This document shows, in pieces, positions 1,195 to 39,139 of a DNA stretch of 39,139 nucleotides. The translations under genes were made by a program, and so were the position numbers. Within the stretch, counting starts at the first letter, position 1. Each line of letters starts with the position of its first letter. Source of the stretch: a virus (Duplodnaviria > Caudoviricetes); IMG/VR virus record IMGVR_UViG_3300027801_000061, positions 1 to 39,139 of that record; one strand, written 5' to 3'. A model generated the notes under the pieces. The model had not been told where the DNA came from and searched no databases. It worked only from the letters and a program-made list of their open reading frames with translations.

Positions 1195-1223
1195 GGAGGG
1201 GCGTCTACGACCCCCGACGCTGT

Positions 1224-1234: not shown

Positions 1235-1237
1235 GGT

Positions 1238-3303: not shown

Positions 3304-3318
3304 ACCTGTAGGAGCCGA

Positions 3319-3329
3319 ACACTGTCCAC
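3319..3329 (+). promoter_or_regulatory. Putative late promoter motif (ACACTGTCCAC)
   Basis: Member of the recurring intergenic motif. Confidence 0.45.
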
Positions 3330-3369
3330 TAGAGGCTTGAACGCATTCTTTTCTTGATTGGAAGTTCAA

Positions 3370-3612: not shown

Positions 3613-3624
3613 TACGTTTGCCTA

Positions 3625-3969
3625 ATGGGCATCCGTACCGCAAGCGCTGAAGAACCAATCCCGACAGAATGGGATTTGTCTTACGAGCCGTGCCCTTGTG
3701 GGGGCACGGCCCAACGCTTTTTTCATGAGACAAGAACGTTTTACCCCGTGCCATGCGAAGGCGAAGCCACAGGGCGGCGCGTTTCGTGGGAATGCAAGAT
3801 GAAACACCACCATAAAGAATTTGCCCAGGGCCGTGACCCTGTGGGCAAGGGTGGAACCCCGTTCCGTGTCTCAGCCGCTGAAGGCTGGACGCAATTTGGG
3901 GCGATGAAAGAGTCACAGGATTTCGCTCGTTCTGAAGGTACCGATCTTCAGCGCTCTTCCCGTTCGTAG
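3625..3969 (+). CDS. Hypothetical Cys/His protein, possible zinc ribbon
   Basis: CPCGG plus further Cys/His residues; lies immediately before the portal. Confidence 0.65.
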   Translation: MGIRTASAEEPIPTEWDLSYEPCPCGGTAQRFFHETRTFYPVPCEGEATGRRVSWECKMKHHHKEFAQGRDPVGKGGTPFRVSAAEGWTQFGAMKESQDFARSEGTDLQRSSRS

Positions 3970-3977
3970 GAGAAACC

Positions 3978-5834: not shown

Positions 5835-5847
5835 AACCACTTCCTGC

Positions 5848-5858
5848 ACGCCGTCTAC
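5848..5858 (+). promoter_or_regulatory. Putative late promoter motif (ACGCCGTCTAC)
   Basis: Identical 11-mer also at 15753-15763. Confidence 0.55.
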
Positions 5859-5906
5859 CCATAATGTAGGAGCAACCCAATATTTGGGACTCTTAAGGAG
5901 CAATCC

Positions 5907-6710
5907 GTGAATCAGACCGAAAGTGGACTCCAAAGTGGAGCACCCGCCACAAGTCAGCAGCAGCAGAATTCAGAAATCCCCTTACCTGACGGTACGGTGA
6001 TTAGTCTGGAAGAAGCGGCACAAGGCTATATGCGTCAAAGGGATTACACCCAGAAAACGCAGGACTTAGCCAACCAGCGTCGCATCGCCCAAAGAGGAGT
6101 TGATCTTCTTCAGGCGCTCGATACCGATCCCAAAGCAACCGTTGATCTGATTGCAGAGACTTACAAAGTTCATGTTTCGCAGGCGTCAGCGCCTGCGACA
6201 GCTACGAACGAGTGGGGCGAAACAATCGAGTCTTCTACGCAGGACACCGCAGAGGTGGCTGCTTTGAAGTCTGAGGTTCAGCAACTTCGGGGGACTGTCG
6301 GGAATGTGGCACAACAGCAGCAGCGTTCTGTTTTGATGAACGAAATCGCTGAGGTTCAAGCTCGTTATGGTGATTTTGATCAGGATGTTATTCTTCGGCA
6401 CATGCAGGCGAATGATATTCCAACGGTCGAGATGGCTTATCGGGATTTGAACTGGGCGTCTGCACAGGAAGCGGTGTCTACACAGCGCGATCTTGAGCAG
6501 GAGCAACAGCGGGTTCTGGATGAGAAACGTGGAATGCAGGGTGTTGTGGCAGCGGGCGCTGGAATCCCTGGAATGAATACTGACACTGGTCCGAAAGAAT
6601 ACAGTGCCTCGTCCCAGGGTTCATGGCGAGATTCTCTCGCCGAGGCTTTCCGAGATTCGATGTCCGAACGTGGTTTTTCGAATGTTGGAGATCCTTTGCT
6701 GAACGGCTGA
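5907..6710 (+). CDS. Capsid scaffolding protein
   Basis: ISLEEAAQGYMRQRDYTQKTQDLA scaffold-type motif, coiled coil, between portal and capsid; SD TAAGGAG. Confidence 0.85.
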   Translation: MNQTESGLQSGAPATSQQQQNSEIPLPDGTVISLEEAAQGYMRQRDYTQKTQDLANQRRIAQRGVDLLQALDTDPKATVDLIAETYKVHVSQASAPATATNEWGETIESSTQDTAEVAALKSEVQQLRGTVGNVAQQQQRSVLMNEIAEVQARYGDFDQDVILRHMQANDIPTVEMAYRDLNWASAQEAVSTQRDLEQEQQRVLDEKRGMQGVVAAGAGIPGMNTDTGPKEYSASSQGSWRDSLAEAFRDSMSERGFSNVGDPLLNG

Positions 6711-16215: not shown

Positions 16216-17561
16216 TGGCAATCACATGGCCTTCGTGGGATGACATAGCAGAGGAATTCGATGAGAGTGTGCTCGGTACGGGCTGGGATAAAATTGGGGA
16301 TGTTATAGATCAAATTCAGGGCGCACCTGACGAAACATTTGATGTTCCAGGGAATGATCCTGAAACTCTTTCGGGCCTGTTTGGCAATATCCCGATGACT
16401 GCTGGGGGGGCTTTAATAAACCCTAGTAATTCGGATATGGGGAACATGCAGTTCCGCATTGCTGCAGCGTGGCAGCACGCTCAGCAAGTCGCAAAGGTGC
16501 AGGGTAAAGCTGTTGGGGATACTTGGGAGAGCAATCCAGACCGAAAACCCGCTCTGGTAAATGCGGCCGATTGGCAGTACAAATACATAAAAACTCAGTC
16601 GGCTTTAGATTCTGCGGCTAACAAAAGTTACTTTGACTCTTTGTATGGTTCTGGATCTTCGGGCGGCACGGGTATAGACACCGCCAGTTTGGAGATGCAA
16701 CAGGCCGCTATTGAGGACACTCTTGCTCGGTCGATGGAACAGATCGCTTCACAGTTTGAGTTGATGACTGCCGAGATGGAACGGCAGAAGGAGGCTTCTG
16801 CTTTGGAGATGGACGCTGCCCGTGTGGCGGCGCTTGAGTCGTTGACTGCAATGTCGGCGGATCTTGAACAGACTTCGACCAGAACTCAGGCCCAGATGGC
16901 TGCTTCTGCTTTGCGTACTGGCGGAGACATTGGTGCTGCTACAGAGGGTGCGTTGCGCCGTTTGGGTTCGACTTCTGATGTGATTTCTGATGGGGCGCGT
17001 CGTGCCATTGAGGAGGAGGGCCAGTCTGAGGTTGGTTTGGCTGCGTCTGAGGCTCAGATTCAGTCTGATTTGTCTGCCCGTTTGGGGCAGATCACTGAGG
17101 GTCAGTTGGGTCGTTCTCGTGGGTCTGCTGAGCAGATCGCTCAGGGCGGTCAGACGGCGATGTCTGCGAGTATGGCTTCGCTGTTGTCGCAGCAGCAGGC
17201 TCAGCGTTCTGGCACAGAGTTTGAGGTGGGCGAGAATGCCCGTCAGGCTGCTTTGGAGTTGGCGTTGAATCCGCCGACTCGTTCTTGGGGTGGTACTGCT
17301 GGTGGTCCTCTTGCTGGTATGGACCATATTCGTCAGGCGGGGCTTGACTACGGCATGTCAGAAACGGAGATCATGCTTCGCATTGAAGCTGGCACGATGT
17401 TTGACAGGTTGGGCGTTGGGAAGCAGACGGGCAACAATAACGCTCAAATATTGTCTCAAGTCAAGACTGACGAGGAGCTAGCTGCTCTGGCGGTAAGCGA
17501 TAAGGGCGTAGTGAATCAAGATGTCATTGACGCTCTAGCCCTCGGTGGTGGATACCCATAG
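16215..17561 (+). CDS. Putative internal virion (ejection) protein
   Basis: Ala/Gln/Ser-rich coiled coil; coupled to both neighbours. Confidence 0.7.
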   Translation: MAITWPSWDDIAEEFDESVLGTGWDKIGDVIDQIQGAPDETFDVPGNDPETLSGLFGNIPMTAGGALINPSNSDMGNMQFRIAAAWQHAQQVAKVQGKAVGDTWESNPDRKPALVNAADWQYKYIKTQSALDSAANKSYFDSLYGSGSSGGTGIDTASLEMQQAAIEDTLARSMEQIASQFELMTAEMERQKEASALEMDAARVAALESLTAMSADLEQTSTRTQAQMAASALRTGGDIGAATEGALRRLGSTSDVISDGARRAIEEEGQSEVGLAASEAQIQSDLSARLGQITEGQLGRSRGSAEQIAQGGQTAMSASMASLLSQQQAQRSGTEFEVGENARQAALELALNPPTRSWGGTAGGPLAGMDHIRQAGLDYGMSETEIMLRIEAGTMFDRLGVGKQTGNNNAQILSQVKTDEELAALAVSDKGVVNQDVIDALALGGGYP

Positions 17562-20500
17562 TGTCTACCACTGAGTTTGATCAAGCCATTGCCGACATAG
17601 CGGCAAAGCACGATGTTTCAGAACAAGCTGTTCTGAACATCAAGAAGAACACGCCACGGTTGGCGGCGTTTGATCCTCTCGACCCTCAAGGGACGTGGGA
17701 TCCCATCCACGACTTCAGTGGCTCTGGTGGCGTTTCTGGCCAGTCTTTCGCTAACCCAGCCTTTCAGCTTTCGGATTCGATGATCGAAGCGATCCGTGCG
17801 AGTTGGAAGAAAGACGACGTTGATGAACGCGGCGGGATCACGGGCGCTTTGCTCGGTGTAGGCGAAACGATTCTGACAGCGATTGATCTGCCTCGGGCTG
17901 GTGTTGTTTCTACGATCAAAGAGTTTGGTGACATCTTTGACTCTGATGAAAAGTTCTCTCTAAACGAGTGGGGCAGTCAGCTTGGTTTGGGCGAAGAGCG
18001 TGCCATCGGGTTTGGTGACTTAATACACGACTGGGCACCTGGCCTGGGCGAGATCGAAATGTTTGGTGTGAAGCCGCTGGACAATCTTGCTGGGTTTGTT
18101 GGCGATGTCTTGTTCGATCCGTTTACTTGGCTGACATTGGGCACTTTGCCGATGGCGAAACAGGGCACTATGGGTGTCGTAAAGATGCTTGATGCTTTGG
18201 GCGATACGGTCAAAGCTCGTGCTGTGATGCGGAACGGTGTCCGTGCTTTGTCTGGCGATGATCTGGCTCGGTTGACCGTTTCGGCACGCAGCAATGGTTG
18301 GATTGGTGCCGCTGATGAACTCAAGGGCGGTATCCAGTTCAGGATCCCTGGCAGCAAAACGTTGTCTCGTCTCCATAGCGGGCCTACGAAGGCGAAACAG
18401 TTGCAGCTAATGTCTCAGGACAACATGCTGTTGAGGTTCACTCCCCGTATGGGAGCGAACACTGCGGCTCAACGGGTCCGCCTTTCAGCTTTGGGCGGGT
18501 TCTTCGGCGGGGACAGAAACCTTCTTAAGACTGCTTTGCGTGACCCGAATGTTTCTGACGACGTTTGGCGGGGGGCATTCCACGGGATATTGGCTGACAA
18601 TGTTGGCCGAGGGATCGAGAAGAGTCTCGACAATTCGTTGACTCAAGCTTGGAATGTCCTTGATCAAATGATCGTCAAGGAAGGTGTCAGCGGCAAAGTT
18701 GCTTATCGTGCGATGGGGATGGATGTTGCCCCCGATGGCATGTCTCAGGAGCTGTTTGAGGCGTTGACGGCGTTCAGTGATGACGTTCTGAAACAATCGA
18801 ACGACATCATGCGCGAGTCGATGGATGGCGTTGATTGGCTTGTTCGACGCAGCAACTGGCAGCCGACGTACAGGACGCAGGAATTTCGTCTCTGGTTGAA
18901 AGAGGCACGTAAAAGTGAGCCTTCTGGCGGCATGTTCGACATGCAGGGCTTTGAGAAGCAAGCGAACATTGTTGCTGGCGGCGAGTTCATGGGCGTCCCG
19001 CTTGTAGACGCCTCTGAAGATGCTGCTCGACGCGGGATCTTGTTGGACGACGGAACTGTTGATGTTGCTAAGGGCCGTGGCCCGAGGGAACAAGCGGTCA
19101 ACATTCTTGAAGAGAACGCTGCCGAGAACGGGTATGGGCACGATGAAATCTTTGACTGGTTCGAAGACGATGTGTTTGTGGCGATGCCACAACACATCAA
19201 GTTGTTGTCTCGTCGTGCCCGTGGCAAGTATGTCGAACGTAAACTTCGTAAAGTTGGTGTGAATCTGGATCGCACCGTCACTTTGGATGCGTCGGTGCGG
19301 CAGGCCAGAGATTACCGTCAGGTTGATGAGGTTCTGAACGATCTGAATCTTCAGATCGAAGAACTTGAGGCGGCAGCAGTTTTGGAACGGGAAGCTGCTG
19401 ATGCTGCCCGTGACGGTGGTATGCCGTTTGCTCAGCGTGGCGTTGACCTTGAGAACAAGATTATTGAGACGCTGCGGTGGCATGCCGATCAGGCTAAGAA
19501 GGCAGCAAAGTTTGGTGTCACTTGGGTTCCGCCGTCGAAGAACGGCACTATTTGGCGGCAGCTGGCTGGAGAAAGTTTGGAAGACGCTGAGCGGATCGGC
19601 CGTTTAGCTGATCAGCGTTCTGATGAGGCGTTTAACAACATAGAGGTGTTGAAGGATGGTGCTGCTGCTCTTGAGCGCCGCGCCGACTATTTGGAAGGTG
19701 AACTTGATCGGATTAAGGGCGGGCTTAGCAAGCTTCGTGCCCGTCAGGCAAATCTGCGCCTTGAGCAACATGATCTGTACGCAAAGGTAGAGCTTCAGGT
19801 TTCGCAGGGGACGCGTGCAGCGTTGAAGGATTTGGCGCGGTTGGATGAGATCGCTCAAGATCTGCGTGACATCAACGAGCCGCTAGCTGCGGCTCGTACG
19901 AGTTTCCTTCTTCAGGCTGGCGAGATCGAAGAGGCCCAAGAGGTCATCAGGATGTCGGCGAAAGTTGTTGTGGGTTCTAACGTTGTTGAGGAGCAGCTCA
20001 GAAAACTGAAAAGACTGTTTCAGTTCAAAAAGGGTTTCCCTAATGATCTTCAGTCTCAGGATGCTTGGGCTAAGCAGGTCAGCAGTTTGATGGACGAAAT
20101 GAACATCCCGTTGAACCTTCGACCAAAGACGTACGAGGCGCTAATCGACTTTGAGATAAATATTGGGCGGGCGCGTCGGGCTGCTGGCCGAAATGTTGCT
20201 GTTGCCCGCAAGGTGATGAGCGCTGCGACTTCTGAGCACACTGATTTGAAGGCTTGGCAGAAAGAGATGGTCGCTGAACGCGACAGTTTGATCGCCCAGT
20301 TGGGTGACGATTTACCGCCTGATGTTGCTGAGGAGATCCGTCTTTCTTTGGAAACTTTGGCTCCTACGAAGGACGGCTACATGTCGTTTGACGGGTCGAC
20401 TGCTTTGTATCACGGTATGAATCGGAATCATGCCGAGATCGATTTGAATAAAGTTCCTGATGCCGCGTCGAGGTCTACTAGCGAGATCGATTCGATTGGG

Positions 20501-23500
20501 CAGCTTCACCTTTCGTTCGATCATGAGATTAGTTTGCGGTACGCTAGCGATCCTTCGAAGATCTTGGGGTTTCGGATGGTTGCGAAGAACCCTGTGATTT
20601 ATGGCGGGACTGGCGACGATTTCTTGCATGGGCATACTGCTTTGTGGGGTCAATCTTCGGAGTCGCATCGCGGTCGCGGTTTGGCTCAGATGCATGTGGA
20701 CATGGTCGATTCTGGGGTGAGGAACGGCCATATCACTTTGGAACATATGAAGGAGATGGGTGTCCCGAACGCTCAACGTATTTGGGATTTGATGGGCGGT
20801 GCCCCTCAGCGTCCGTATGTTCCGATCCTGCCGTTTCTTGACGGTTTGCCTAAACGGATGACTAGAGCTGAAATCGATCACGCTGGCCGTACTTCACTCT
20901 CGCACCCTCGTGGCAGAGATTTATTTGAGCGGTGGAAGCGTGGCCCTCACCCCAGAGATGTAACTTACAGTGACGTTAATTTTGATGATCTTGATGAAGC
21001 CGCACAGGCTATGTGGATCGAGAACTGGAACACGGGCTGGAGCAGGGACGGCACCGTAAATCTCCAAAACTTTCACGAGATAGAGGTTAATCAACTATTT
21101 GATGATGATCTTTGGGAGACAGGAGATTGGATCTCGACTCTAGATATTTCGGATTGGGCGGATGCTCCTGGGACTGGCGATGTGCTCGCTGATGTCCGCG
21201 AGATGCGTGAACGGCTCTATCTGACCGCTCAAGTCAGGATGGACGCCCTCGACGACATCGGCGCCCTCGACCTCGATGCGGACACCATCGGGGTGTGGGT
21301 TAAAACTAGCGATTTGGCAGGCGACACTGACGAAGTTATTCCGACCCAGATTTATGCGCCTGATGACAAAGCCAATGTGGTTCTAGTACAGATCCCTCCT
21401 GAAGCGGTCAGACACATCGTGCCCATCACCTCAAACCCTAAAGCAATTGTTAACAAATCAATTCTGATCCAAGCCCGCACTAATATGGATGACGCCAAAG
21501 CGGCCGTCGAGAAGTCTTTAAGGGTTGAAGAACTGATCGGCGTTCAGAGCGGCGTCAAACTGTCTTACTCGGAAGCGGCCGCTATTGTCGGCGACGACGG
21601 CACCCAACCTTTTCCCATCACAGGTATCATTTCCGAACTCCGCGACGAACACAAGCAAGTGGCCCATCGTGTGCAACAGATGGGCGGAACCATGGCCGAG
21701 TACGATTCTGGTGCAGTGGACATTCTGGCTCGGGGCGGGATGGACCTTCTAACATACCAAGGCAGCCACGACGCTGCTGGAATTCTTAATGCTCTCGCTC
21801 TGGAAGATCCGACGCTTCTGGGCCGTTTGAAGTACAAGCGTTCCCCATGGACAGGCAACCGTTCGGCTGGAGCTGGCGGGCCTTTGAGCAAAGAAGGTGT
21901 ACTGCAAGAGGAGCGGTGGATCGCCAACCTGATCGTTAAAGCTAAACGAAACGGTGTTGAGCCGTTGGAGAGAATCCCTCTAACCCCGAAGCAGCTTGTA
22001 GAAGACCCGAATGGTCAATGGTTCAATACTTACATCAAGCCAGTTTCTTCGAATCAGTGGATTGGCGGCAGCCCCGCCTCAGGATTGTCCAGCATGGGAG
22101 GTTCACAACTGAAGGACGACTTTGCTGACGGGTTGATGGATTGGGTAGCGGATTTCCATCGGGAGCTTCGCGCCGAAGGTTACGATTCGATCTTGTACAC
22201 AGGGTTTGAGCACGGCGGGCAATGGAACGCTATTCCGTTGGATCCGAAGAAGCAGTTACAGCCGTTTGCGGGTGGCGCCGACGAGTTGACGCCTAAGAAC
22301 AAGGACTCTTTGAACGCCTCTATGTTGGGTGATGAGGACACTAGTAAATCGTTTATCACTTCACGAGAGTTTGGGAAACAGTTAGACGATGCTGCCAGTG
22401 GCTCAGGGGCAATTGGCGGCGCTAATGCGATTGGCTCCAGTCCTAAAAACATAATCAGATATCAAAGCAGAATGGACGTTAATAAAGCGCTGGATTCAGC
22501 CGCGCTTGGGATTGAAGCTACCTCAAAAAAGAACTGGGCCAAGCACGAATACGATGTCATCACGGATCGCGTCGAGTCGACATTAAATGACTTCGAATCC
22601 ACCATTGAGACCTGGGTTACCCAGAACTTTGTCGATTCGACTGGCGGGAATACCAGGCATCCAGAGCAAATCCTAACGAATTTGACTTCGGCCAGAGGGA
22701 AACTTGCTCAGGAAATCGGCGCGCTGAGTAAGGTTGCTGACAAAATAGAAGCGATCGATCCTGCTCAAGCGGCGGCTATGGCCGCTCCCCTCAGGCAACA
22801 AATAGACATGTTGCGGAAATACCTTTCCGACACTACTCAAGTTTCGTGGAGCATCGGTCGTGCTTTCTCTGAGGCGAAGCGTGTAGGAGCAAAGAATCTT
22901 CAGGCCCGTACTGCCAAACAGTTTGTGGGGTTGATCGATGAGTCGATGCTGGCCTTGGAGGCACGCAAAGTAAAGAGGTATCAGGAGATTGCTGATGCCG
23001 CTGACGAGATCTCTCCCTTTGTTGCTGAGGCTCAGGGCAGTGTTCGGCAAGCTGCCGAGCAGCTTGCCGAGAACCAGCGAAGGATCGCTCAGATCGACGC
23101 TGATATGGCTGAGGAGGCTACTACAGCGGACGGGACGGTGGCGTATTTTAGGTCTCAGGAGTTGAGTCTCAGGGGTGAGGCGACTGAGCGGTTTGAGATG
23201 GCTAATCGTCTTGATAATGAGGAGCTTGAGGCTGCTGAGCGGGCGAGGCGGGCGTCTGTTACGGATGTGAGCATGGATGGTGTGCCTGTGCCTCGTCCTT
23301 CGGAGCGGGTTGCTTCTGTGGAAGTTCCTAATGTTGCGGCTGGTCGTGTTGCCGATATGCGGGTTGAGCGTGCGGCTCAGACTGTGTCGTTGAATCAGAC
23401 GAACGCCCAGTTTCTTCGGTTGGAGGCTAATGCGAAGATGTTGGAGGCCGATTTGGCCCGTCTGTCCCATGACAGGGATTTGATTGCTACTCGGTTTGCG

Positions 23501-24865
23501 ACGATGTCTATGCCTGAGCGCACCGAGGCTTTGTCTTCGGTTATGCGTGGGTTTACGGCGTTCGGTGCTGATGGTCAGATTCCTGAGGAAGTGGCTCAGG
23601 GTTTGGCTGATGTGAATCGGATTATTGGTGCGCGTGGCAGCAATAGTGTTGTGACGGTTTTTGACAAGGTGAACGACTTGTTTAAGGCGTGGGCTATTGC
23701 GTCGCCTGGTTTCCATTCTCGGAACTTCTTTGGCGGCGTGTTCAATAATGCTTTGGCTGGTGTTGAGCTTTCTTCGTATGGTCGTTTCCATCAGCTTTAT
23801 AAGCCTGTGCGGGCTGCTATTGATGCGGGTGGTTCTGTTGATGAGCAGGTGGCTGCGTTGCGGGGCAGCAAGCAGGCTCAGAGGCTGGTAGATAGCGGCA
23901 ATGGTCGGTTTGTGGATCACATGGCGACGTTGATGCGGAACGGCGTTTTGAATGGTGGTCAGACGACGGAGTTGCAGAGGGTGGCTCGGGCGCGGTCGAT
24001 CAATCCGTTGAACCCGAACAACATTGTTACGGCTACGGCCCGTCGGCCTGCGTTGCATGTTGAGAACATGTTGCGTGGGACGTTGGCGATGGACAGGCTC
24101 ACGAAGGGTCTTGATATTGATTTGGCTGTGGCTGACGTGTACAAGTATCACTTCGATTATGACGATTTGTCTGGGTTTGAGCGTGGCGTGATGCGGCGTG
24201 CGATCCCGTTCTATACGTGGACTCGCAAGAATTTGCCGTTGCAGTTGGAGATGATGTTTAAGAACCCGAAGGTTTATAACCGTGTTCATTCTTTGAAGCG
24301 GGAACTTGAGCGGGATTCGGAGAAGGAAACGTTGTTGCCGAAGTGGATCGAGGATCGGTTCCATATCCAGTTGCCTATGTCGATGGGCGGCGATTCGGTT
24401 TTCTTGGTTCCTGATTTGCCGTTTGCCGAGCTTGATCGGGCGATGAACCCGAGGCTGATCGTTGCGTCTATGAGTCCTTTGGTTAAGATTCCGTTGTCTG
24501 AGATTGCTGACAAGAACTTCTTCTTTGATAGCGATTTCCGCGATGATTACAAGCCGTTGCCGAAGGCGTGGGACACCGTTTTGGCTCCGTTGTTGCCTGC
24601 GTTGCATGGGGCTGGGATGGTTGGCCGTCGTGAGGATGGCGAGTGGGTGGCTACTGATCGGAACATGCACCATTTGGAGTCGACGTTGCCGATTTTCTCT
24701 GCGCTGCGTCGGCTGTGGCCGACGTTGGGTGACGAGAAGACTGAGTCTCGCACTATGCAGAACTGGGTGAACTGGACTTCAGGTATCGGGTTTAGGCGGA
24801 TCACTGAGGATCAACGCAAGTGGGAGCAGTGGCGGCGCGACAACGCAGAGTGGCTGGATCGGTAG
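17561..24865 (+). CDS. Giant internal virion / polyvalent protein (2434 aa) with coiled coils and a putative ART-PolyVal-like domain
   Basis: GFVGDVLFDPFTW near the N-terminus; PGFHSRNFFG and FDYDDLSGFER..MRRAIPFYTWTRKN near the C-terminus, typical of large podovirus ejection proteins; LYHG...RYA...AKNP and LRAEGYDSI...PLDPKKQL in the middle. Confidence 0.8.
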   Translation: MSTTEFDQAIADIAAKHDVSEQAVLNIKKNTPRLAAFDPLDPQGTWDPIHDFSGSGGVSGQSFANPAFQLSDSMIEAIRASWKKDDVDERGGITGALLGVGETILTAIDLPRAGVVSTIKEFGDIFDSDEKFSLNEWGSQLGLGEERAIGFGDLIHDWAPGLGEIEMFGVKPLDNLAGFVGDVLFDPFTWLTLGTLPMAKQGTMGVVKMLDALGDTVKARAVMRNGVRALSGDDLARLTVSARSNGWIGAADELKGGIQFRIPGSKTLSRLHSGPTKAKQLQLMSQDNMLLRFTPRMGANTAAQRVRLSALGGFFGGDRNLLKTALRDPNVSDDVWRGAFHGILADNVGRGIEKSLDNSLTQAWNVLDQMIVKEGVSGKVAYRAMGMDVAPDGMSQELFEALTAFSDDVLKQSNDIMRESMDGVDWLVRRSNWQPTYRTQEFRLWLKEARKSEPSGGMFDMQGFEKQANIVAGGEFMGVPLVDASEDAARRGILLDDGTVDVAKGRGPREQAVNILEENAAENGYGHDEIFDWFEDDVFVAMPQHIKLLSRRARGKYVERKLRKVGVNLDRTVTLDASVRQARDYRQVDEVLNDLNLQIEELEAAAVLEREAADAARDGGMPFAQRGVDLENKIIETLRWHADQAKKAAKFGVTWVPPSKNGTIWRQLAGESLEDAERIGRLADQRSDEAFNNIEVLKDGAAALERRADYLEGELDRIKGGLSKLRARQANLRLEQHDLYAKVELQVSQGTRAALKDLARLDEIAQDLRDINEPLAAARTSFLLQAGEIEEAQEVIRMSAKVVVGSNVVEEQLRKLKRLFQFKKGFPNDLQSQDAWAKQVSSLMDEMNIPLNLRPKTYEALIDFEINIGRARRAAGRNVAVARKVMSAATSEHTDLKAWQKEMVAERDSLIAQLGDDLPPDVAEEIRLSLETLAPTKDGYMSFDGSTALYHGMNRNHAEIDLNKVPDAASRSTSEIDSIGQLHLSFDHEISLRYASDPSKILGFRMVAKNPVIYGGTGDDFLHGHTALWGQSSESHRGRGLAQMHVDMVDSGVRNGHITLEHMKEMGVPNAQRIWDLMGGAPQRPYVPILPFLDGLPKRMTRAEIDHAGRTSLSHPRGRDLFERWKRGPHPRDVTYSDVNFDDLDEAAQAMWIENWNTGWSRDGTVNLQNFHEIEVNQLFDDDLWETGDWISTLDISDWADAPGTGDVLADVREMRERLYLTAQVRMDALDDIGALDLDADTIGVWVKTSDLAGDTDEVIPTQIYAPDDKANVVLVQIPPEAVRHIVPITSNPKAIVNKSILIQARTNMDDAKAAVEKSLRVEELIGVQSGVKLSYSEAAAIVGDDGTQPFPITGIISELRDEHKQVAHRVQQMGGTMAEYDSGAVDILARGGMDLLTYQGSHDAAGILNALALEDPTLLGRLKYKRSPWTGNRSAGAGGPLSKEGVLQEERWIANLIVKAKRNGVEPLERIPLTPKQLVEDPNGQWFNTYIKPVSSNQWIGGSPASGLSSMGGSQLKDDFADGLMDWVADFHRELRAEGYDSILYTGFEHGGQWNAIPLDPKKQLQPFAGGADELTPKNKDSLNASMLGDEDTSKSFITSREFGKQLDDAASGSGAIGGANAIGSSPKNIIRYQSRMDVNKALDSAALGIEATSKKNWAKHEYDVITDRVESTLNDFESTIETWVTQNFVDSTGGNTRHPEQILTNLTSARGKLAQEIGALSKVADKIEAIDPAQAAAMAAPLRQQIDMLRKYLSDTTQVSWSIGRAFSEAKRVGAKNLQARTAKQFVGLIDESMLALEARKVKRYQEIADAADEISPFVAEAQGSVRQAAEQLAENQRRIAQIDADMAEEATTADGTVAYFRSQELSLRGEATERFEMANRLDNEELEAAERARRASVTDVSMDGVPVPRPSERVASVEVPNVAAGRVADMRVERAAQTVSLNQTNAQFLRLEANAKMLEADLARLSHDRDLIATRFATMSMPERTEALSSVMRGFTAFGADGQIPEEVAQGLADVNRIIGARGSNSVVTVFDKVNDLFKAWAIASPGFHSRNFFGGVFNNALAGVELSSYGRFHQLYKPVRAAIDAGGSVDEQVAALRGSKQAQRLVDSGNGRFVDHMATLMRNGVLNGGQTTELQRVARARSINPLNPNNIVTATARRPALHVENMLRGTLAMDRLTKGLDIDLAVADVYKYHFDYDDLSGFERGVMRRAIPFYTWTRKNLPLQLEMMFKNPKVYNRVHSLKRELERDSEKETLLPKWIEDRFHIQLPMSMGGDSVFLVPDLPFAELDRAMNPRLIVASMSPLVKIPLSEIADKNFFFDSDFRDDYKPLPKAWDTVLAPLLPALHGAGMVGRREDGEWVATDRNMHHLESTLPIFSALRRLWPTLGDEKTESRTMQNWVNWTSGIGFRRITEDQRKWEQWRRDNAEWLDR

Positions 24866-32210: not shown

Positions 32211-32507
32211 TCAGCCGTCCAGCCCGAGGCGTGCTGGGCGGGTGTTGGGCCTGTGTGCTGGCCCTCCGCTGACCCAGAACGACATCTTTTCGTCTACGAC
32301 GACAAACATGTCGGGGCATCCGAGGGATCGGTCTGCGTGCCATTTGCGTACGGCTGCGATTGCTGACGGGAGATCGTCTGCGTGCATCTCTACGTCAACG
32401 TCGTTGCCTTCACCGAAACCGAGGATGATCTCGATCCCCATACCTGGCTCGCATTCGTCTGGGTCTGCATGTGGGTCTGCAGGGTAGATCATTGCTGATG
32501 TGTTCAT
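32211..32507 (-). CDS. Acidic hypothetical protein
   Basis: SD TAGGAG then TACACA ATG. Confidence 0.75.
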   Translation of the reverse strand: MNTSAMIYPADPHADPDECEPGMGIEIILGFGEGNDVDVEMHADDLPSAIAAVRKWHADRSLGCPDMFVVVDEKMSFWVSGGPAHRPNTRPARLGLDG

Positions 32508-32600
32508 TGTGTACTCCTATGATTGCGGGACTTGAAATCCAACTATTGCGGACATCAGGCAACCCGCCACCCCTGTGTGGGACGGCGGGCTGCTTGTCGC

Positions 32601-32792
32601 CTACAAGTCTCGACTGTGCATGAGCGGCTTGGGTGCAGGCTGCACGGCCACGCTTGTGACCCACCACTCATCTCTGTCGTTCGCTTGGAAGGTTTCCAGC
32701 ATCTGTTCGGCGATGCCTTCCATCTGCTTCAGGTACACGGCTTTGCCCTCGGGCAGCCCGTCACGTAGGTGGACGTTCAACACGAGCCTCAT
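32601..32792 (-). CDS. Hypothetical protein (63 aa, MRLVLNV...)
   Basis: ATGA overlap with the upstream gene. Confidence 0.6.
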   Translation of the reverse strand: MRLVLNVHLRDGLPEGKAVYLKQMEGIAEQMLETFQANDRDEWWVTSVAVQPAPKPLMHSRDL

Positions 32793-32980
32793 CTGATGCC
32801 TGCTGCCTGCTGCATCAGTGACGCTGCGAAGTCGTCCATCGCTTCGGCTGTGCCGCATGCGGAGCAGACCATGGTCTTGTTGTCCTTGCGGGACAACGCT
32901 CCTGGGTACAGCCCTGGCGTGTCGTTGTTGGGTATGTAGCCCTCACATGTAGGGCATATTGGCTTGGTCGTATCGGTCAT
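32789..32980 (-). CDS. Small zinc-finger protein (63 aa)
   Basis: CPTC...PGALSRKDNKTMVCSACG, a recurrent phage Zn-finger pattern. Confidence 0.8.
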   Translation of the reverse strand: MTDTTKPICPTCEGYIPNNDTPGLYPGALSRKDNKTMVCSACGTAEAMDDFAASLMQQAAGIR

Positions 32981-33060
32981 ATCGGTATCTCTCTCTGTCT
33001 GTGTGTGAACGGTTGGTGCGGGGCAGGAGCATGACGCTCCTGCCCCACAGAGGCTGCCTA

Positions 33061-33987
33061 TCAGGCTCGAACGAGGATCCGTGCGGCCTTGTTGGTCAGC
33101 GGGAAGTTGTCTTTGGCCCAGTTGCCAGCGACCCGAGCCTGACGGCCCTTGTCGTTGCCTTGTACGTGCAGCTCGTACTCGTTGACCGTCTGCAGGAAGT
33201 GCCATGCAGTCTCCTGTGAGCCGATGGTCGGCCCATCGAAGATGCGGCGCATGTCTGCACGTCGCTCCATCCAGTTTGCCTTGACACGGTCTGTGGCTTC
33301 ACCCTCGGGCTTGGGGAACAACGCTGGCATCAGCTCCTCGCCGAAGGAGACACGGCTGTACGCCTTGTCCATCAGCCCTGCAGCCCAAGCATCGAACTCG
33401 TCGAACGCTGTGTACGTCGACACGAGTGCAACCTTCGCCTCGGCCAGACGTTCATGTGCAGAAGAACGGTGCTGGATGCTGTGGAACAGCTCGCCGCCAG
33501 AGACAGCGATCTTCAGCGTGTTCTCACAGACGACTCGCATGTTGACACCCTCGATGCGGAACGAGCCGCTGCCGTGCCATGTGGAGATGAGCAGCCAACG
33601 GTGGATGGCCTCGTCTGTGCCGTCGAAGCGAGGCGACTCGCCCAAGTCGACCAGCATCCAGACGAACTTGCCGCCCCACATCTGGCCGCAGGTCTGGACG
33701 CTCAGGTCCAGCTCGTCGGCGATGTCGGCCAGCTCCGTGTTCTGCAGGATCTCGTACTTGGGTGAAACGACATCCAGCACGGCTCCCTCGGTCGTCTTCA
33801 AAGCGACGTGAGTTTCCAACGGCGTGTAGCTGTTGGTGCAGAGCAGGGCTGACTTGTGGACGCCCCAGGCAATGCCTCCTAGGTGCAGAGCTTCACGGCC
33901 TGTGCAGAAGCGGTCGATGACCGTTCCGATGCCGTGCCACGGCGTGGTGCCGCTGTTGCTCATCATGGTTTCGGGGATTGCTCCCAT
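33061..33987 (-). CDS. DUF932 / DUF945-family phage-plasmid protein
   Basis: TPWHGIG, VSPKYEILQN, GGKFVW, STWHGSGS, RVVCENTL, TAWHFLQTVNEY. Confidence 0.87.
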   Translation of the reverse strand: MGAIPETMMSNSGTTPWHGIGTVIDRFCTGREALHLGGIAWGVHKSALLCTNSYTPLETHVALKTTEGAVLDVVSPKYEILQNTELADIADELDLSVQTCGQMWGGKFVWMLVDLGESPRFDGTDEAIHRWLLISTWHGSGSFRIEGVNMRVVCENTLKIAVSGGELFHSIQHRSSAHERLAEAKVALVSTYTAFDEFDAWAAGLMDKAYSRVSFGEELMPALFPKPEGEATDRVKANWMERRADMRRIFDGPTIGSQETAWHFLQTVNEYELHVQGNDKGRQARVAGNWAKDNFPLTNKAARILVRA

Positions 33988-34077
33988 TATGTGACCTCCT
34001 GTGGTCATGTGTGTGTGAAGTCTGAAGACTTCGCCGATGCCACACAGTACGCAGACCGTGTGACATCGACGCTGCTG

Positions 34078-34371
34078 TCAGGCCAGATCGGACGGGCCGC
34101 TGTACATGGAGACGTTCCCCTTGAGTACGAGGAAGCCGCTGGTGATCATCGTCTTGACTGCCTCCCTGACCTCGTGGCGGAACGCTGCACTCTGCAGGAA
34201 GGCAGCCTGTGCCTCGGCGATCAGGTTGCGGATGTCCTGAGCACTCAGCTCCGACGCATCCTCGTCTCGGTCGGCGAGGTAGCCATCGATGATGCTCTCG
34301 ATGGTCTCTCGGGCCTCCTCGACCAGTTCGTCTGCATCGATGTTGATCTCAGATTCGAAGGGAATATCCAT
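34078..34371 (-). CDS. Acidic hypothetical protein (97 aa)
   Basis: SD GGAGGT before ATG 34371; very D/E-rich N-terminal half. Confidence 0.75.
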   Translation of the reverse strand: MDIPFESEINIDADELVEEARETIESIIDGYLADRDEDASELSAQDIRNLIAEAQAAFLQSAAFRHEVREAVKTMITSGFLVLKGNVSMYSGPSDLA

Positions 34372-34475
34372 TATGTGTACCTCCCAGGTACATGTGTGTG
34401 AAGTTGTCGGGATTGATAACTTCGTGCAACACACAGAGCCGCTGTGGCCCTGTGCCCTGCACGCTGGCATCAGTC

Positions 34476-34544
34476 CTAGCCGTTCCCGCACCTGAGTGGC
34501 TTGTCTGTGTCTGTAGTTGATGTGTCTGTGTCTGTGTCGCTCAT
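34476..34544 (-). CDS. 22-aa micro-ORF MSDTDTDTSTTDTDKPLRCGNG
   Basis: Perfect SD TAAGGAGGT immediately before the ATG. Confidence 0.45.
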   Translation of the reverse strand: MSDTDTDTSTTDTDKPLRCGNG

Positions 34545-34627
34545 GGCGACCTCCTTATGTTGGTCGAGCGATCTGCTCGGCGAGTGGTGCCCCATCACCC
34601 TATCAGGCATGGGACGGTGTCGTACAA

Positions 34628-34759
34628 TCAGAAGAGTCGAGGCTCGTTGCCGTCCCTCTCCTCAGCGATGATGCTCAGTGCGAGGGTGCCGTGGATGCCA
34701 CGGGCACGCTCCACGCGTTCCTGATGCTTGTCTGCCTGTGATCGGTCTGAGTGGTTCAT
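34628..34759 (-). CDS. Small hypothetical protein (43 aa, MNHSDRSQ...)
   Basis: ATGA overlap with the upstream gene. Confidence 0.55.
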   Translation of the reverse strand: MNHSDRSQADKHQERVERARGIHGTLALSIIAEERDGNEPRLF

Positions 34760-35019
34760 GTCTTCTTCCAGTCTGCATAGTCGTTGGGAACTTCGGGGTA
34801 CTCTGTGGGCAGCAGCGGACGTTCGTGCAGAACGTCTGCGTCTGTGAACTGATGGCCCTGCACGAAGTTGCCGTGCATGGCTGCTTCCAGCACATGGCCG
34901 AAGGCTTCGCCGTCGGCGGCTTGCCTCTTCTCACGTTCGTGGTACAGGGCCAGGATCCAGCTCCCTACGATCATGATCATGACCATGATCGCCCAGAACG
35001 CTCCCAGTGATGTGTTCAT
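34756..35019 (-). CDS. Single-TM membrane protein (87 aa)
   Basis: LGAFWAIMVMIMIVGSWILALY. Confidence 0.7.
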   Translation of the reverse strand: MNTSLGAFWAIMVMIMIVGSWILALYHEREKRQAADGEAFGHVLEAAMHGNFVQGHQFTDADVLHERPLLPTEYPEVPNDYADWKKT

Positions 35020-35128
35020 ATCTGCTCTCTTTCTGTGGCTGCTACAGCAGCCGTCTTGTGTAGGTTCTTTCTTAATGAGCGGCTCCCTGAGGGGAGCCGC
35101 GAATGCAAGGCTGGAGAACTGCGTTCTC

Positions 35129-35158
35129 ATTATAACGCAGCCCTCCAGCCCCGTACAA
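35129..35158 (-). promoter_or_regulatory. Putative promoter TTGTAC-N18-TATAAT with the -10 inside an inverted repeat
   Basis: Consensus TATAAT on the minus strand at 35129-35134. Confidence 0.5.
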
Positions 35159-35179
35159 ACACGCTCTGTGTAGTAGCCC

Positions 35180-35296
35180 CTATGTGCAGGACGTCCAGCA
35201 GGCATCTGGCCCGAGAACGTAGGGCAGGCGAGTCGCCACAAGGGCTGCTAGAGCAAGCAGTGCGGCAACGAATGCGATGTCGTAGATGCGATTCAT
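35180..35296 (-). CDS. 38-aa hydrophobic peptide (MNRIYDIAFVAALLALAALV...)
   Basis: TM-like stretch; starts 5 nt after the upstream stop. Confidence 0.5.
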   Translation of the reverse strand: MNRIYDIAFVAALLALAALVATRLPYVLGPDACWTSCT

Positions 35297-35301
35297 GCTG
35301 T

Positions 35302-35598
35302 TCAGTCCCGCAGAGCGGAGTCGCCTGCAGGACCGTCGCTGGCCCACTCGCCGTCGTCGGGGTTGTGTGGCCCGTGGTCGCCTTCTTCCATGTACAGCCA
35401 GCACGTCGGGCACAGGTAGAACTGCACAGGCCGTGGCACGTTGTTCATGATGATCTCGCGGTGTGCAGGGTGCCAGTCCCCATCGGGGAAATGCGTCTTG
35501 ACGTTGCCGCCTGCCTTGTACGCCGCGAACTTGGTCGCGGAGACTTCTACAGACTGGATGGAGCTGCAGTCGTTGCATGTGGATGTGAGTGTGATCAT
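35302..35598 (-). CDS. Early protein with two CxxC motifs
   Basis: CNDC...REII...YLCPTCW; SD TAAGGAG. Confidence 0.8.
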   Translation of the reverse strand: MITLTSTCNDCSSIQSVEVSATKFAAYKAGGNVKTHFPDGDWHPAHREIIMNNVPRPVQFYLCPTCWLYMEEGDHGPHNPDDGEWASDGPAGDSALRD

Positions 35599-35691
35599 TG
35601 TGTGTATCTCCTTATCTGTGAAGCGGGATCGCTTCAGGGAACCTTCACACCGTAGGCGGAAGGCTCCCCGCAGAGATCCTCTCTCTGTGTC

Positions 35692-35979
35692 CTAGCGCCA
35701 GACGTTCTCGCAGGCGTCGTCGTAGTCTCCCTGTGTGGCGAACAGCTTGCCGCAGCCGTTCTTCACGGTACACAGCACAGACCCCTCGGGCATGCCGACC
35801 TGCTCGGGGAAGTACGCCCCGCCCTGCAGGTGGCCTTCGCCGTTGCCTGTGCCCAGGCTGGAGCTGTGGGTGCAGATCCCGCTGCGACGCAGAGCCGCAC
35901 CGTGGCGTGCCTCTTCGACGTACAGAGCCATCTCGATGTCGGCATCCTGAATGGTTGCCTCTTCGTCGTATCCAAACAT
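35692..35979 (-). CDS. Early Cys/His protein
   Basis: CTH...C....GCG; SD AAGGAG. Confidence 0.8.
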   Translation of the reverse strand: MFGYDEEATIQDADIEMALYVEEARHGAALRRSGICTHSSSLGTGNGEGHLQGGAYFPEQVGMPEGSVLCTVKNGCGKLFATQGDYDDACENVWR

Positions 35980-36060
35980 TGTGTGTATCTCCTTGTGTAG
36001 GTGAAGCGGAGTGCTTCGTGATCCCTGCAGACAGCAATGCCTGCAGGGATCCCGCTGTAC

Positions 36061-36444
36061 TCAGCCCTGTGCAGCGCGACGGGCAAACGCCGCGTCCTCG
36101 GCATCGTTGCCGTAAGGGGCGAACTCTGCAGGCATGTCATCCGACTGCCACACAGTGACGTCCATGTCGCGCAGGCGTCGGCAGAAGAACTGGAAACGGT
36201 CTACAGCGTCCACCCAGTCGAGGTCATAGGAGCCGCTCCCCCAACCTCGCGCGTCGTCGTCGTCGAGTCGTGCATCTGTGAAGAACACGAAACGCTGCGC
36301 GGGGTTGCGGGAGCCTGTGCACATGTCTGGGGCATCCACGATGCCATGCAGAACCTGCACAGTGCCGAATCCTGCAGGCTGCACAATCGCAGCGACCAGA
36401 GTGTGGCCGTTGATGGTTGTAGGGATGGTGTGTGTGGTCGACAT
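36061..36444 (-). CDS. Early hypothetical protein (GWGSGSYD motif)
   Basis: SD AAAGGA; bounded by leader modules. Confidence 0.78.
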   Translation of the reverse strand: MSTTHTIPTTINGHTLVAAIVQPAGFGTVQVLHGIVDAPDMCTGSRNPAQRFVFFTDARLDDDDARGWGSGSYDLDWVDAVDRFQFFCRRLRDMDVTVWQSDDMPAEFAPYGNDAEDAAFARRAAQG

Positions 36445-36525
36445 GAGTCGATCCTTTCTGTATGTGTGAAGCGGAGTGCTTCAGGATCTCTACAGATATC
36501 GCTACCTGCAGAGATCCCGCTGCAA

Positions 36526-36714
36526 TCACTTGCGGCGCTTGTCTTTCGATGGTCGGAACTCTGCACGATCTCCCACAGAGACCCACTTGCCGTCGCGCTC
36601 GTTGCCGTCACAGGAACCCCTGTTTGGCCTGCAGTGTGTGCATTGGCCCTGCGCTAGGCGTGCCCTGTTGCGCTCGACCTTCGTTGTGTAGCTATCAAAT
36701 CCTCCACCAGTCAT
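36526..36714 (-). CDS. Small basic early protein with CTHC (62 aa)
   Basis: SD AGGAGG before ATG 36714. Confidence 0.72.
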   Translation of the reverse strand: MTGGGFDSYTTKVERNRARLAQGQCTHCRPNRGSCDGNERDGKWVSVGDRAEFRPSKDKRRK

Positions 36715-36724
36715 GGCGGCCTCC

Positions 36725-36742
36725 TGTGTGTGTGTGTGTGTG
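36725..36742. repeat. (TG)9 microsatellite, read as (CA)9 just upstream of an SD
   Basis: Seen directly. Confidence 0.9.
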
Positions 36743-36811
36743 ATGCGGAGCATCGGCGACGGCACCACCTCTGCAGGCGATGCCGTCGCCGTCGTCTGTA
36801 TCAGTTGATTA

Positions 36812-37051
36812 TCACAGACGGCTGCCCTTGATCACAATCGTCGCCCATGAGACCCGCCCTGCAGACTCGTTCTCCTGCACAGCGGCATCGATCTCGGCGA
36901 GCACCTCTGCAGCCCGAGCCGCCACACCGCGGAATCCTTCCTGTGCAGCGATCCGCTGATCATGGATCAGTGCAGCGCGCAGATCCATCAGCGACACAGA
37001 GATCTCTAGACCCTTTGAGTAGGTGAATGTAACTGTCTGTTCTGTAGCCAT
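36812..37051 (-). CDS. Early hypothetical protein (79 aa)
   Basis: SD AAGGAG before ATG 37051. Confidence 0.75.
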   Translation of the reverse strand: MATEQTVTFTYSKGLEISVSLMDLRAALIHDQRIAAQEGFRGVAARAAEVLAEIDAAVQENESAGRVSWATIVIKGSRL

Positions 37052-37166
37052 TTCTGTATGTCTCCTTGTGTAGGGATGCGGGATCGCATCCTTGATTGAC
37101 GCTGTAGAGCATCGGGCAACACGCCACGGGGGTACCGCGGCATGCTGCACGTCGTCTGCAGACCGA

Positions 37167-38099
37167 CTAGGCGAACGTCACAGCAACCTCTGCAGACGGG
37201 TTCCTGATGAATCCCTTGTGATCGATGTTCTTGTAGCCGCGGGGCAGCTTGTAGCGCAACCCGACGACCACGCCCTGCAGATCACGGAAACGCAGATCGT
37301 GTTTGTCGCCGTCGATCACTCTGTGGCCCACGTACGTCTGTGGCAGATCCTCACCGCGTCGCACAGTGAACGGGATCACCACGTTTCGCCCTGCAGCGAT
37401 CTCGGCGTGAATCTCGGCGTCTGTAGTGTTCTCAGTCGCCGACAGCACCCTGTACAGGTTCGGACGTGCCCAACCCATCTGCAGATCATGACGCTTGCTG
37501 TAGTCTGTGAACACCACAGACGGGAACTGCTCTGTGAGCCACACAGGCACATTCACATCCGTTGTGCCATTGATTCGCACACACAGACGCTTGCCCTTCC
37601 GCTCTACACGAGCCTTGTTCCGCCGAACCTCTGCAGCCATCTGCGACCAGAACAACGACGGCGCACCGTCTGTAGTAGCACCCGTGTTTGCGTACAGAGC
37701 CGTTCGTGCAAGCTTCGCACGCTCCGCCATCGCGAGCCTGCCTGCAGTGTGCAGACAAGCTCCCCTGCAGCCCTGTGTGCTGTGTACACACATGTTCTCG
37801 AACAGCATCTCTACAGAGTCACGCCACATCTGCGGCACAGTCTCACGCCACAGAAGCCCGCCTAGCCTGTGCGGCAACATGTAGCAGATCGCCTGCTCCC
37901 ACTCTGTAGCGTCGTCGTCGACCCACAGAGCACCATCAGGCGCCTGTGCAGACTCATTCTTCTGCAGCTTGCCCACAGCCCGCTGTGGCGTCAACAAGTA
38001 GGCGGAAAGTCCGCCACCAACCATCTGCGACACGCTCTGCAGCAACGCTGCAGAATCACCTGCAGGCAACCGCGTCCCATCGATCCTGTAATTTCCCAT
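37167..38099 (-). CDS. GP88-like protein with a Cys triad (radical-SAM-like Fe-S motif)
   Basis: NMCVHSTQGCRGACL..AGR, VRINGTTD, FTDYSK, VIDGDKHDLRF.D..GVVVGL; SD AAGGAG. Confidence 0.78.
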   Translation of the reverse strand: MGNYRIDGTRLPAGDSAALLQSVSQMVGGGLSAYLLTPQRAVGKLQKNESAQAPDGALWVDDDATEWEQAICYMLPHRLGGLLWRETVPQMWRDSVEMLFENMCVHSTQGCRGACLHTAGRLAMAERAKLARTALYANTGATTDGAPSLFWSQMAAEVRRNKARVERKGKRLCVRINGTTDVNVPVWLTEQFPSVVFTDYSKRHDLQMGWARPNLYRVLSATENTTDAEIHAEIAAGRNVVIPFTVRRGEDLPQTYVGHRVIDGDKHDLRFRDLQGVVVGLRYKLPRGYKNIDHKGFIRNPSAEVAVTFA

Positions 38100-38187
38100 T
38101 TCTGTATATCTCCTTGTGTATGTGATGTCTACTGTAGAGCATCGCGCACGCCACACACACACGCTGTGTGTGTGGCGTCCATGTCGC

Positions 38188-38379
38188 CTACAGAGCCTCG
38201 ACTATTTCGAACGTGACCCGAACGTAACGATCACGCGGCCCCGTACGTATCGGCACGTACTGTGTAGCCTTGCCTGTAGTCCTAGGCGACGTGCCCTTCT
38301 GTAGCCGCGTCCCTAGCGTGTTTATGGTTTCCAGTATTTCGATGCCTGTAGGCGCGGTGTCTGTAGCAAGCATGATCAT
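38188..38379 (-). CDS. Small early protein (63 aa)
   Basis: ATGA overlap with the upstream gene. Confidence 0.65.
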   Translation of the reverse strand: MIMLATDTAPTGIEILETINTLGTRLQKGTSPRTTGKATQYVPIRTGPRDRYVRVTFEIVEAL

Positions 38380-38780
38380 TGCGCCACGTCACCCATCAAG
38401 CGACGGCATCGCTCCCACCGCTCCCCGAAATAGGGCGCAGGAACGTCCTCTGTGTAGAAGGGCAGACGGTCATCCTGCAGACGGTACGCAATCCACTCGG
38501 CGCGTTCCTCTGCAGAGTGATCCTGCAGAAACCACAAACCCGATGCCAGACGGTCCCGCACATAACGATCATGTGCATCGTCTGTGTCATAGCTCCACAC
38601 AGTTACCGCGTGTAGGCGCAAGTTCCAAAAACCGCCCTCTGCAGAGCCTTCCGTTGTGTAGCCTCGCGGCATGTAGCGTTGGATCTCGCGCTCTGCAGAC
38701 TCCAGATCACGATCACCGCGGACGCCTATGTAGCCTAGGAATCTGTCGCCAAACCTATTGATATGTAGCTCTTGTGTCAT
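38376..38780 (-). CDS. Early hypothetical protein (134 aa)
   Basis: ACACA-ATG leader like neighbouring early genes; YVRDRLASGLW motif. Confidence 0.75.
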   Translation of the reverse strand: MTQELHINRFGDRFLGYIGVRGDRDLESAEREIQRYMPRGYTTEGSAEGGFWNLRLHAVTVWSYDTDDAHDRYVRDRLASGLWFLQDHSAEERAEWIAYRLQDDRLPFYTEDVPAPYFGERWERCRRLMGDVAQ

Positions 38781-38794
38781 TGTGTGCATCTTTC

Positions 38795-38812
38795 TGTGTG
38801 TGTGTGTGTGTG
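38795..38812. repeat. (TG)9 microsatellite in an early-gene leader
   Basis: Seen directly. Confidence 0.9.
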
Positions 38813-38880
38813 CGATGCCTGTAGGGCATCCCGCACGCTACCGACTAACTAGGGTCGGCCGATAGCGTGCCAGTCGCCTA

Positions 38881-39139
38881 CAGAGCGAATCAGTTCTTTA
38901 CGGTACCCTTAGCGATACGCATGCCTGCAGTCTTAAGCGTACCGACGCACAGTTTCACGCGGTCCGCGTCACCTGTCGCTACACAGAGGTCATGCCAGAT
39001 CTGCGCGTTGTTCGTGTTTGTGTGCTTACTGAACCGCGTCTTAGCTATCCCTGCCTGCTGTGCAGGCGTACGCGGTCCACGCGGACGCTTTACGGTCGCC
39101 TTAGGTGCAGGTGGCGTCTTCCCACCGCGGCTCTTACGT
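38881..39139. repeat. Terminal duplication of positions 1-259 (circular overlap or terminal redundancy)
   Basis: Direct comparison shows mismatches only at offsets 19, 28, 31, 34, 36, 37, 112 and 133; offsets 134-259 are identical. Confidence 0.95.

Follow-up and report, generated by a model that had tools for sequence, protein, structure and literature searches.

What do the stable hairpins between the early genes of a phage do, when none of them resembles an ordinary terminator? The question arises in the IMG/VR virus record IMGVR_UViG_3300027801_000061, a Caudoviricetes genome given as one strand of 39,139 nucleotides (the window). The initial annotation had placed a double-hairpin leader, in about 13 copies, before nearly every gene of the minus-strand early arm. 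Strong folding was indeed found in 12 of the 13 early-arm spacers (z −3.6 to −6.2 relative to dinucleotide shuffles; the spacer 34546-34630 gave −1.3), but a conserved core was present in ten of the 13, and the short hairpin in nine of these ten, 32546-32606 being the exception. Two of the remaining spacers, 35020-35165 and 34546-34630, are promoter regions, and the third, 32981-33063, carries a plain hairpin without the core. "Nearly every early gene" was overstated, since an element precedes about ten of the 17–18 early open reading frames (ORFs); the others are coupled to the prior gene or lie behind a promoter. We put a probability of roughly 0.7 on the reading that the ten elements are conserved early-gene RNA stems that likely serve as processing sites for host RNase III.

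An RNA stem with a fixed core

On the mRNA strand, the unit is a single RNA stem, in which a lower stem of 4–8 bp is followed by a C-G pair, two variable positions, a second C-G pair and an upper stem (16–20 bp in the window elements). The core thus consists of C-G, a purine.A mismatch and C-G; it takes the form C[AG]C, C[GA]C or C[UG]C on the 5′ strand of the stem and G[AA]G or G[AU]G on the 3′ strand. The classes of the two sides co-occur: among 14 stem families, GA was found with AU in eight, AG with AA in five and UG with AA in one.

When the window was scanned for hairpins bearing this core, 14 matches were obtained on the minus strand and one on the plus strand. Ten of the minus-strand matches were intergenic sites of the early arm; the others were a shifted duplicate, a site within a gene and two sites elsewhere. 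Twelve matches fell in the 6.5-kb early arm, compared with 0–2 in each of 40 shuffles. When hairpins were located independently of the motif, the core was present at nine of 11 intergenic hairpins and at none of five in coding regions. Extending the scan to 26 loci yielded 134 matches, 73 of them unique; the related loci have 82–97% helicase identity and represent about ten distinct genomes, several loci being duplicates, and their gene calls still miss a few ORFs. We retained 51 intergenic elements. The 22 matches removed by eye were those in coding sequence, shifted duplicates, two intergenic matches, one match that lay beyond the early arm and three in distant phages.

Both foldings of the annotated double hairpin exist, but they belong to one longer stem. 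The short hairpin is an alternative fold of the long stem's 3′ arm, beginning at the core G in 46 of the 51 elements; the short hairpin's 5′ arm and loop pair with the bases immediately upstream of the long hairpin. The lower stem and the fixed core had been missed, and the actual unit is larger than the one first described. The short hairpin, with a loop of 3 to 12 nt, is followed by a tract that is 76% A+C.

Core-to-core length was 36–41 nt in 43 of the 51 elements (range, 33–47). Stem position 6, five above the core G, was A-U or U-A in 50 of 51, compared with 27 of 140 at other positions; its identity had played no part in element selection. Position 3 above the core was mismatched in 57% of the 14 stem families. 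Two further claims of the annotation agreed with our counts. Noncanonical pairs at positions 5–14 were mostly G.U on the mRNA strand (17 G.U, one A.C and three others in 14 representatives, whose selection allowed G.U), and U tracts were absent, none of the 51 elements having more than three U among the 9 nt that follow the upper stem.

The two hairpins that had been singled out for compensatory changes, 35980-36060 and 36445-36525, are present on the minus strand and bear those changes. Within orthologue sets, pairing was kept in 16 of 19 variant pair types (three by two-sided change), compared with 19–37% expected per random change, and a single set of 11 orthologues had 99.3% of its cells paired, lower stem included.

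Predicted processing by host RNase III

Of the explanations offered in the initial annotation, the T7-like one of RNase III processing with 5′ stabilization has the strongest support, to which positional evidence now adds. RNase III would divide the long early transcript into segments carrying one to three genes, nicking only the 3′ arm of each stem, 5′ of GA(A/U)G. The upstream piece would keep the upper stem at its 3′ end as a barrier to exonucleases, whereas the downstream piece would refold to a hairpin at its extreme 5′ end, followed by the open CA-rich tract, which likely keeps the ribosome site open, and the Shine-Dalgarno sequence.

In a minimal E. coli substrate, a G-C pair at position 2 of the proximal box blocks RNase III binding and position 1 prefers G-C; the enzyme requires 11 bp, and internal loops can restrict it to a single cut that leaves a protective 3′ hairpin (PMC1540722). 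The E. coli and Aquifex enzymes favor G at +3 (PMC9291653), and B. subtilis RNase III has similar box preferences (bioRxiv 2023.03.12.532304). In the elements, seven steps separate position 6 from the A/U of GA(A/U)G, which is the spacing of the two proximal-box position-2 pairs; setting both on these pairs therefore places the 3′-arm cut directly before the first G. Both halves of the proximal box are then non-G-C at position 2, by the A-U or U-A pair at position 6 in 50 of 51 elements and by A or U on the cut strand in 51 of 51 (a partly curated count). The last G of GA(A/U)G falls on the preferred +3 G, numbering from R0 being our own reading. The 3′ arm is GAUG in 29 and GAAG in 22 of the 51 elements, the final G being part of the search motif, and the 5′ arm has the +3 G in 23. 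All upper stems in the window exceed the required 11 bp. A look for a U-A/U-G distal box gave a U-G peak at position 12 (4.5 of 14 families), in an uncertain register.

The predicted cut falls exactly where the short hairpin begins on its 5′ side. Over the 51 elements, pairing probability was 0.18–0.27 at the three bases before the core G and 0.93–0.99 from the G on, rising from 0.20 one base before it to 0.98 at the G itself. The predicted downstream product had a 5′-terminal hairpin in 46 of 51 elements, compared with 43% of shuffled controls. In the stem of this hairpin, A-U and U-A exchange among elements, as do C-G, U-A and U-G. That 5′-terminal pairing shields mRNA from RNase E is established (PMC3997798).

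Several observations weigh against RNase III processing. The invariant C-G pair adjoins the predicted cut and breaks the E. coli rule of no G-C or C-G there, such a pair lowering E. coli cleavage 7- to 14-fold (PMC1540722); T7 R1.1 can form the same C-G pair beside its cut. The box rules are those of E. coli and Aquifex and may not be those of the phage's host. The T7 sites lack the +3 G, and two of five T7 stems lack the GAU core. The A/U of GA(A/U)G was partly curated, as the two dropped intergenic matches (span 49–50) had G there, and paralogues share ancestry, so that element counts are not independent. Orthologue covariation is thin, with two-sided change in two of 25 pairs (matched by 55 of 500 shuffles) and 16 pairs invariant. 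The lower stem was favored in the uncut fold of nine of 14 representatives and had a probability below 0.3 in five; its cognate pairing exceeded that of shuffled partners overall (p 0.005), but gave p 0.11 within core class. The lower stem is the weaker part of the element. Finally, three related loci (L020, L021 and L037) separate many early genes by other, shorter hairpins or by none.

The C-G pair beside the cut bears on a different explanation, in which the core is bound without being cut, by RNase III or another RNA-binding protein, or in which another nuclease acts, such as RNase E in the C-rich tract. G-C at both positions beside the predicted cuts allows binding and suppresses E. coli cleavage (PMC1540722), and the mycobacterial RNase E cleaves C-rich RNA on the 5′ side of cytidines (PMC10641625), with which the composition of the tract would agree. 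Most early proteins gave no match in our family searches of the early ORFs, which leaves this explanation room. Two conserved early proteins had no named match in the ESM Atlas, only clusters below 0.9. However, a hairpin that starts exactly at the predicted cut would be useful mainly if its end is freed. Among the early ORFs there was no match to a nuclease or RNA-binding family, which argues against this explanation, as does the absence of an RNase III domain from the phage genome; the latter result also led us to reject a phage-encoded RNase III as the cutter. We regard binding without cutting, or cutting by another nuclease, as rather unlikely.

Promoters, gene exchange and genome setting

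The stems could instead be U-less intrinsic terminators or attenuators, each with its own promoter, as in PeSL-like or phiC31-like cassettes. They are GC-rich and lie directly behind stop codons, genes shuffle at them as at PeSLs, and two promoter candidates overlap hairpins (Table 1). The annotation had named a terminator followed by an independent promoter as the opposing case, and we looked for it. In the window element spacers, the host-type promoter pattern did not occur, and the TANNNT hexamer was absent from six of the ten. The terminator scan listed none of the ten elements, which lack a U tract of 7–9 nt. Six consecutive elements lie between promoters. Over 14.2 kb of the window, the same promoter pattern matched at four forward sites and one reverse site, and each of eight related loci had 1–5 forward and no reverse sites; a standard sigma-70 scan misses the 18–19 nt spacers of these candidates. 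Termination would leave the lower stem, the core and the position-6 rule unexplained, and mycobacterial RNA polymerase needs a U tract and does not stop at U-less hairpins (PMC3993855). Terminators of this kind appear improbable.

Three further observations concern the promoters themselves. The −10 boxes at 35103-35158 and 34597-34627 lie in or beside hairpin loops with G.U pairs, distinct from the ten elements; the −35 box swaps between TTGTAC and TTGACG among relatives; and a candidate extended −10 promoter, TGG-TACCAT, was seen by eye at 534-542 on the minus strand, before the first early gene.

Tandem-hairpin antiterminators like put of phage HK022 had also been proposed. Two abutting hairpins, the lack of U tracts and a long operon would suit put-like antitermination or an anti-Rho action, either of which would carry RNA polymerase along the early arm. 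HK022 put sits just behind its promoter, whereas the elements recur before single genes and none lies directly behind a promoter. In addition, the second hairpin competes with the lower stem, and Rfam gave no match except two weak miRNA models. We give antitermination hardly any credence.

Early gene order and content differ strongly between relatives; counting the window and five other loci, the element at 36742-36803 is followed by four different genes. In the related locus L033, the layout is gene, element, extra gene, element and DUF932 gene; the window and L035 each lack the extra gene and one element. Each deletion has its crossover in 14–15 nt common to both copies; this stretch is at the 5′ core in the window, and in L035 it is in the short hairpin and CA tract. 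When the window is compared with L033, many block ends lie within elements, other insertions and deletions being in genes or promoter spacers. Because selection against broken genes also favors breakpoints in spacers, the claim of shuffling rests on the mapped junctions. Gene loss and exchange take place by crossover in the shared core and CA tract. The comparison of related genomes suggested by the initial annotation thus uncovered two deletions with crossovers inside element copies, and its proposal of recombination joints holds as a side role.

Could the elements act on DNA only, as recombination joints (attC-like single-strand hairpins) or as N4-like hairpin promoters for a virion RNA polymerase? 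The crossovers within elements agree with the former, and G.T is tolerated in single-stranded DNA too. N4-type hairpin promoters come with a virion RNA polymerase and a fixed 3-nt loop, whereas the short-hairpin loops here have no fixed length and neither an integrase nor an RNA polymerase was found in the phage; a 2434-aa virion protein had no polymerase match. Several of the hairpin loops are UNCG, and they are so on the mRNA strand. Ordinary homologous or annealing recombination explains crossovers in such shared sequence. A purely DNA-level role is very improbable, and the N4-type promoter was rejected as a candidate, since the 2434-aa ORF has no Pfam family or meaningful PDB match.

In six of the ten window copies, the upstream stop codon lies at most 9 nt before the core, and in five at most 3 nt. 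With the stop codon this close, a ribosome terminating there would open the lower stem and flip the 3′ arm into the short hairpin, so that the RNase III site would be concealed. The elements might then be translation-sensing processing switches that are also gene-swap joints, an extension of RNase III processing that we consider possible but doubtful. If it holds, cutting would depend on translation of the preceding gene, and any gene that arrives at the core by shuffling would come under the same control.

The window is a complete phage genome, with a terminal overlap of 259 nt and a CheckV value of 99%. Its virion genes are podovirus-type and lie on the plus strand. On the minus strand, the small early ORFs are followed by genes for an exonuclease, a helicase, a primase, WhiB and RusA and by a sigma-like gene; the first early gene wraps the genome end, from 10-513. 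WhiB is a pointer to an actinobacterial host, and because the phage encodes it, the host is probably actinobacterial. A WhiB search for host clues found no relative in genome contigs and two homologues elsewhere, and the capsid protein has at most 32% identity to those of cultured phages. The coordinates of the elements and neighboring features are collected in Table 1.

Table 1. Elements and other features of the early arm in the window, with second-class hairpins of distant relatives
Feature	Position	Strand	Predicted cut	Remarks
Early gene arm	32211..38780	−		17–18 ORFs, mostly small
Element, GA/AU core	38814..38886	−	38831/38830	Short hairpin 38830-38814; comes after first early gene
Element, GA/AU core	38124..38196	−	38144/38143	Before GP88-family gene; upstream stop codon within lower stem
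GP88-family gene	37167-38099	−		Early arm; family match
Element, GA/AU core	37074..37163	−	37114/37113	Followed by a second short GAUGC...GCAUC hairpin, 37074-37091
Element, GA/AU core	36742..36803	−	36755/36754	
Element, AG/AA core	36468..36529	−	36483/36482	Paralogue of 36003..36063, with compensatory changes
Element, AG/AA core	36003..36063	−	36018/36017	Paralogue of 36468..36529
Element, UG/AA core	35620..35684	−	35636/35635	cUACGg tetraloop
Host-type promoter candidate, TTGTAC-N18-TATAAT	35129..35158	−		Pattern; −10 in loop of 22-bp hairpin 35103-35156, PeSL-like layout
Host-type promoter candidate, TTGTAC-N19-TAGGGT	34597..34627	−		Overlaps weaker hairpin
Element, AG/AA core	34400..34476	−	34424/34423	5′ flank pairs with 12-nt loop of short hairpin
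Element, AG/AA core	34017..34082	−	34033/34032	Before DUF932 gene; chimeric junction from cassette deletion
DUF932/TIGR03299 gene	33061-33987	−		Early arm; family match
Plain 15-bp hairpin, no core	33017..33049	−		After DUF932 gene; left out of element count
Element, GA/AU core	32546..32606	−	32557/32556	Lower stem present, upstream stop within it; no short hairpin in this genome
Second-class hairpins	L017:2265-2290, 2615-2637, 4248-4272, 4463-4492; L015:3464-3490			

Other features of the genome were noted in passing. A tRNA-Pro(GGG) gene at 1041-1115 is followed at about 1120-1190 by short CTAG-containing repeats that are absent from L035. CCGG occurs nowhere in the window, where about 140 sites are expected, nor in L020, L021, L033, L035 and L037, a hint that the phages avoid a CCGG restriction system of the host. 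Where the early arm starts (window 1-2000 and 36000-39139), CTRYAG is enriched (27 and 17 per bin, compared with 0–7 elsewhere), as it is in L035 (33 and 22 in 2000-6000), with no enrichment in four other relatives. The gene at 34476-34545 is shortened by an internal deletion, being about 96 aa in L035, L033 and L020. The 2434-aa virion protein without Pfam or PDB match is encoded at 17561-24865, and by eye its middle region resembles what we take to be inserted polyvalent-protein domains. A perfect-looking 531-bp inverted repeat at L042:3717-4780 is probably an assembly artefact.

Comparison with known early-gene systems

No description of the element was found in literature searches that covered few subscription journals. 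Two exact patterns run over viral contigs returned four and five loci, all of this clade except L054, an AT-rich chance match in which the stem is absent; exact patterns cannot detect diverged element families. Three motif matches came from seven distant phage loci with DUF932, the sole one inspected (in L030) being in a coding frame. The distant relatives carry a second, coreless repeat class of 9–10 bp G/C-run hairpins with UUCG, GCAA or GAA loops, beside CA tracts (Table 1).

The early region of the Streptomyces phage phiC31 reportedly has U-less terminators. It resembles the present genome in being an actinophage early arm with GC-rich intergenic stems that lack U tracts, but no examined intergenic stem there has the core, and the motif gave three scattered matches in 21.5 kb over both strands. 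PeSLs of T4-like phages are likewise repeated cassettes of stop codon, stem-loop and Shine-Dalgarno sequence before ORFans, where recombination between copies shuffles genes; they are defined by a promoter and a terminator (PMC2839356, PMC4122927). By pattern, the elements have neither the sigma-70 promoter nor the working terminator of PeSLs.

The host-takeover module of the Bacillus phage SPO1 has RNase III sites (PMC3896407, citing Stewart 1998). As here, small early genes are accompanied by repeated intergenic stems that share a conserved base, with promoters interspersed. The SPO1 stems have another core, however, most of the spacers hold promoters and U-tract terminators, and our motif gave no match in 13.5 kb of SPO1. 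That these unannotated stems are the RNase III sites is our assumption.

The closest counterpart to the register of the predicted cut is T7 R1.1, which is cut at nt 5887 (PMC8708148). The three bases that follow the R1.1 cut are G, A and U, which face C, A and A, respectively, and an A-U pair occupies −5; the elements have this register too. Three of the five T7 early stems, R1.1 and two more, share it. For the stems beyond R1.1, which are unannotated in the T7 record, the names and cut points are ones we presume. Both systems place intergenic stems in a polycistronic early arm, and the single 3′-arm cut that leaves a protective 3′ hairpin in T7 is predicted here (PMC1540722, PMC8708148). A hairpin close to the 5′ end is predicted for the R1.1 product as well. 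T7 differs in having five similar, shorter stems, compared with ten sites with diverse upper stems here, and a 4x5 loop where our stem is nearly symmetric with an invariant +3 G. Also particular to the present system are the predicted 5′-terminal refold, the probable actinobacterial host and the use of the sites as gene-swap joints. The R1.1 cut is mapped, whereas ours are predicted from sequence.

The kind of system is thus already known from T7 and SPO1. If our reading is true, T7-type early mRNA processing extends to a probable actinobacterial phage, and one element can both free a gene's message from its neighbors and act as a point of gene exchange. The 51 natural variants, with diverse stems, fixed positions and cut sites predicted to the base, would then be ready material for working out the specificity of RNase III in actinobacteria.

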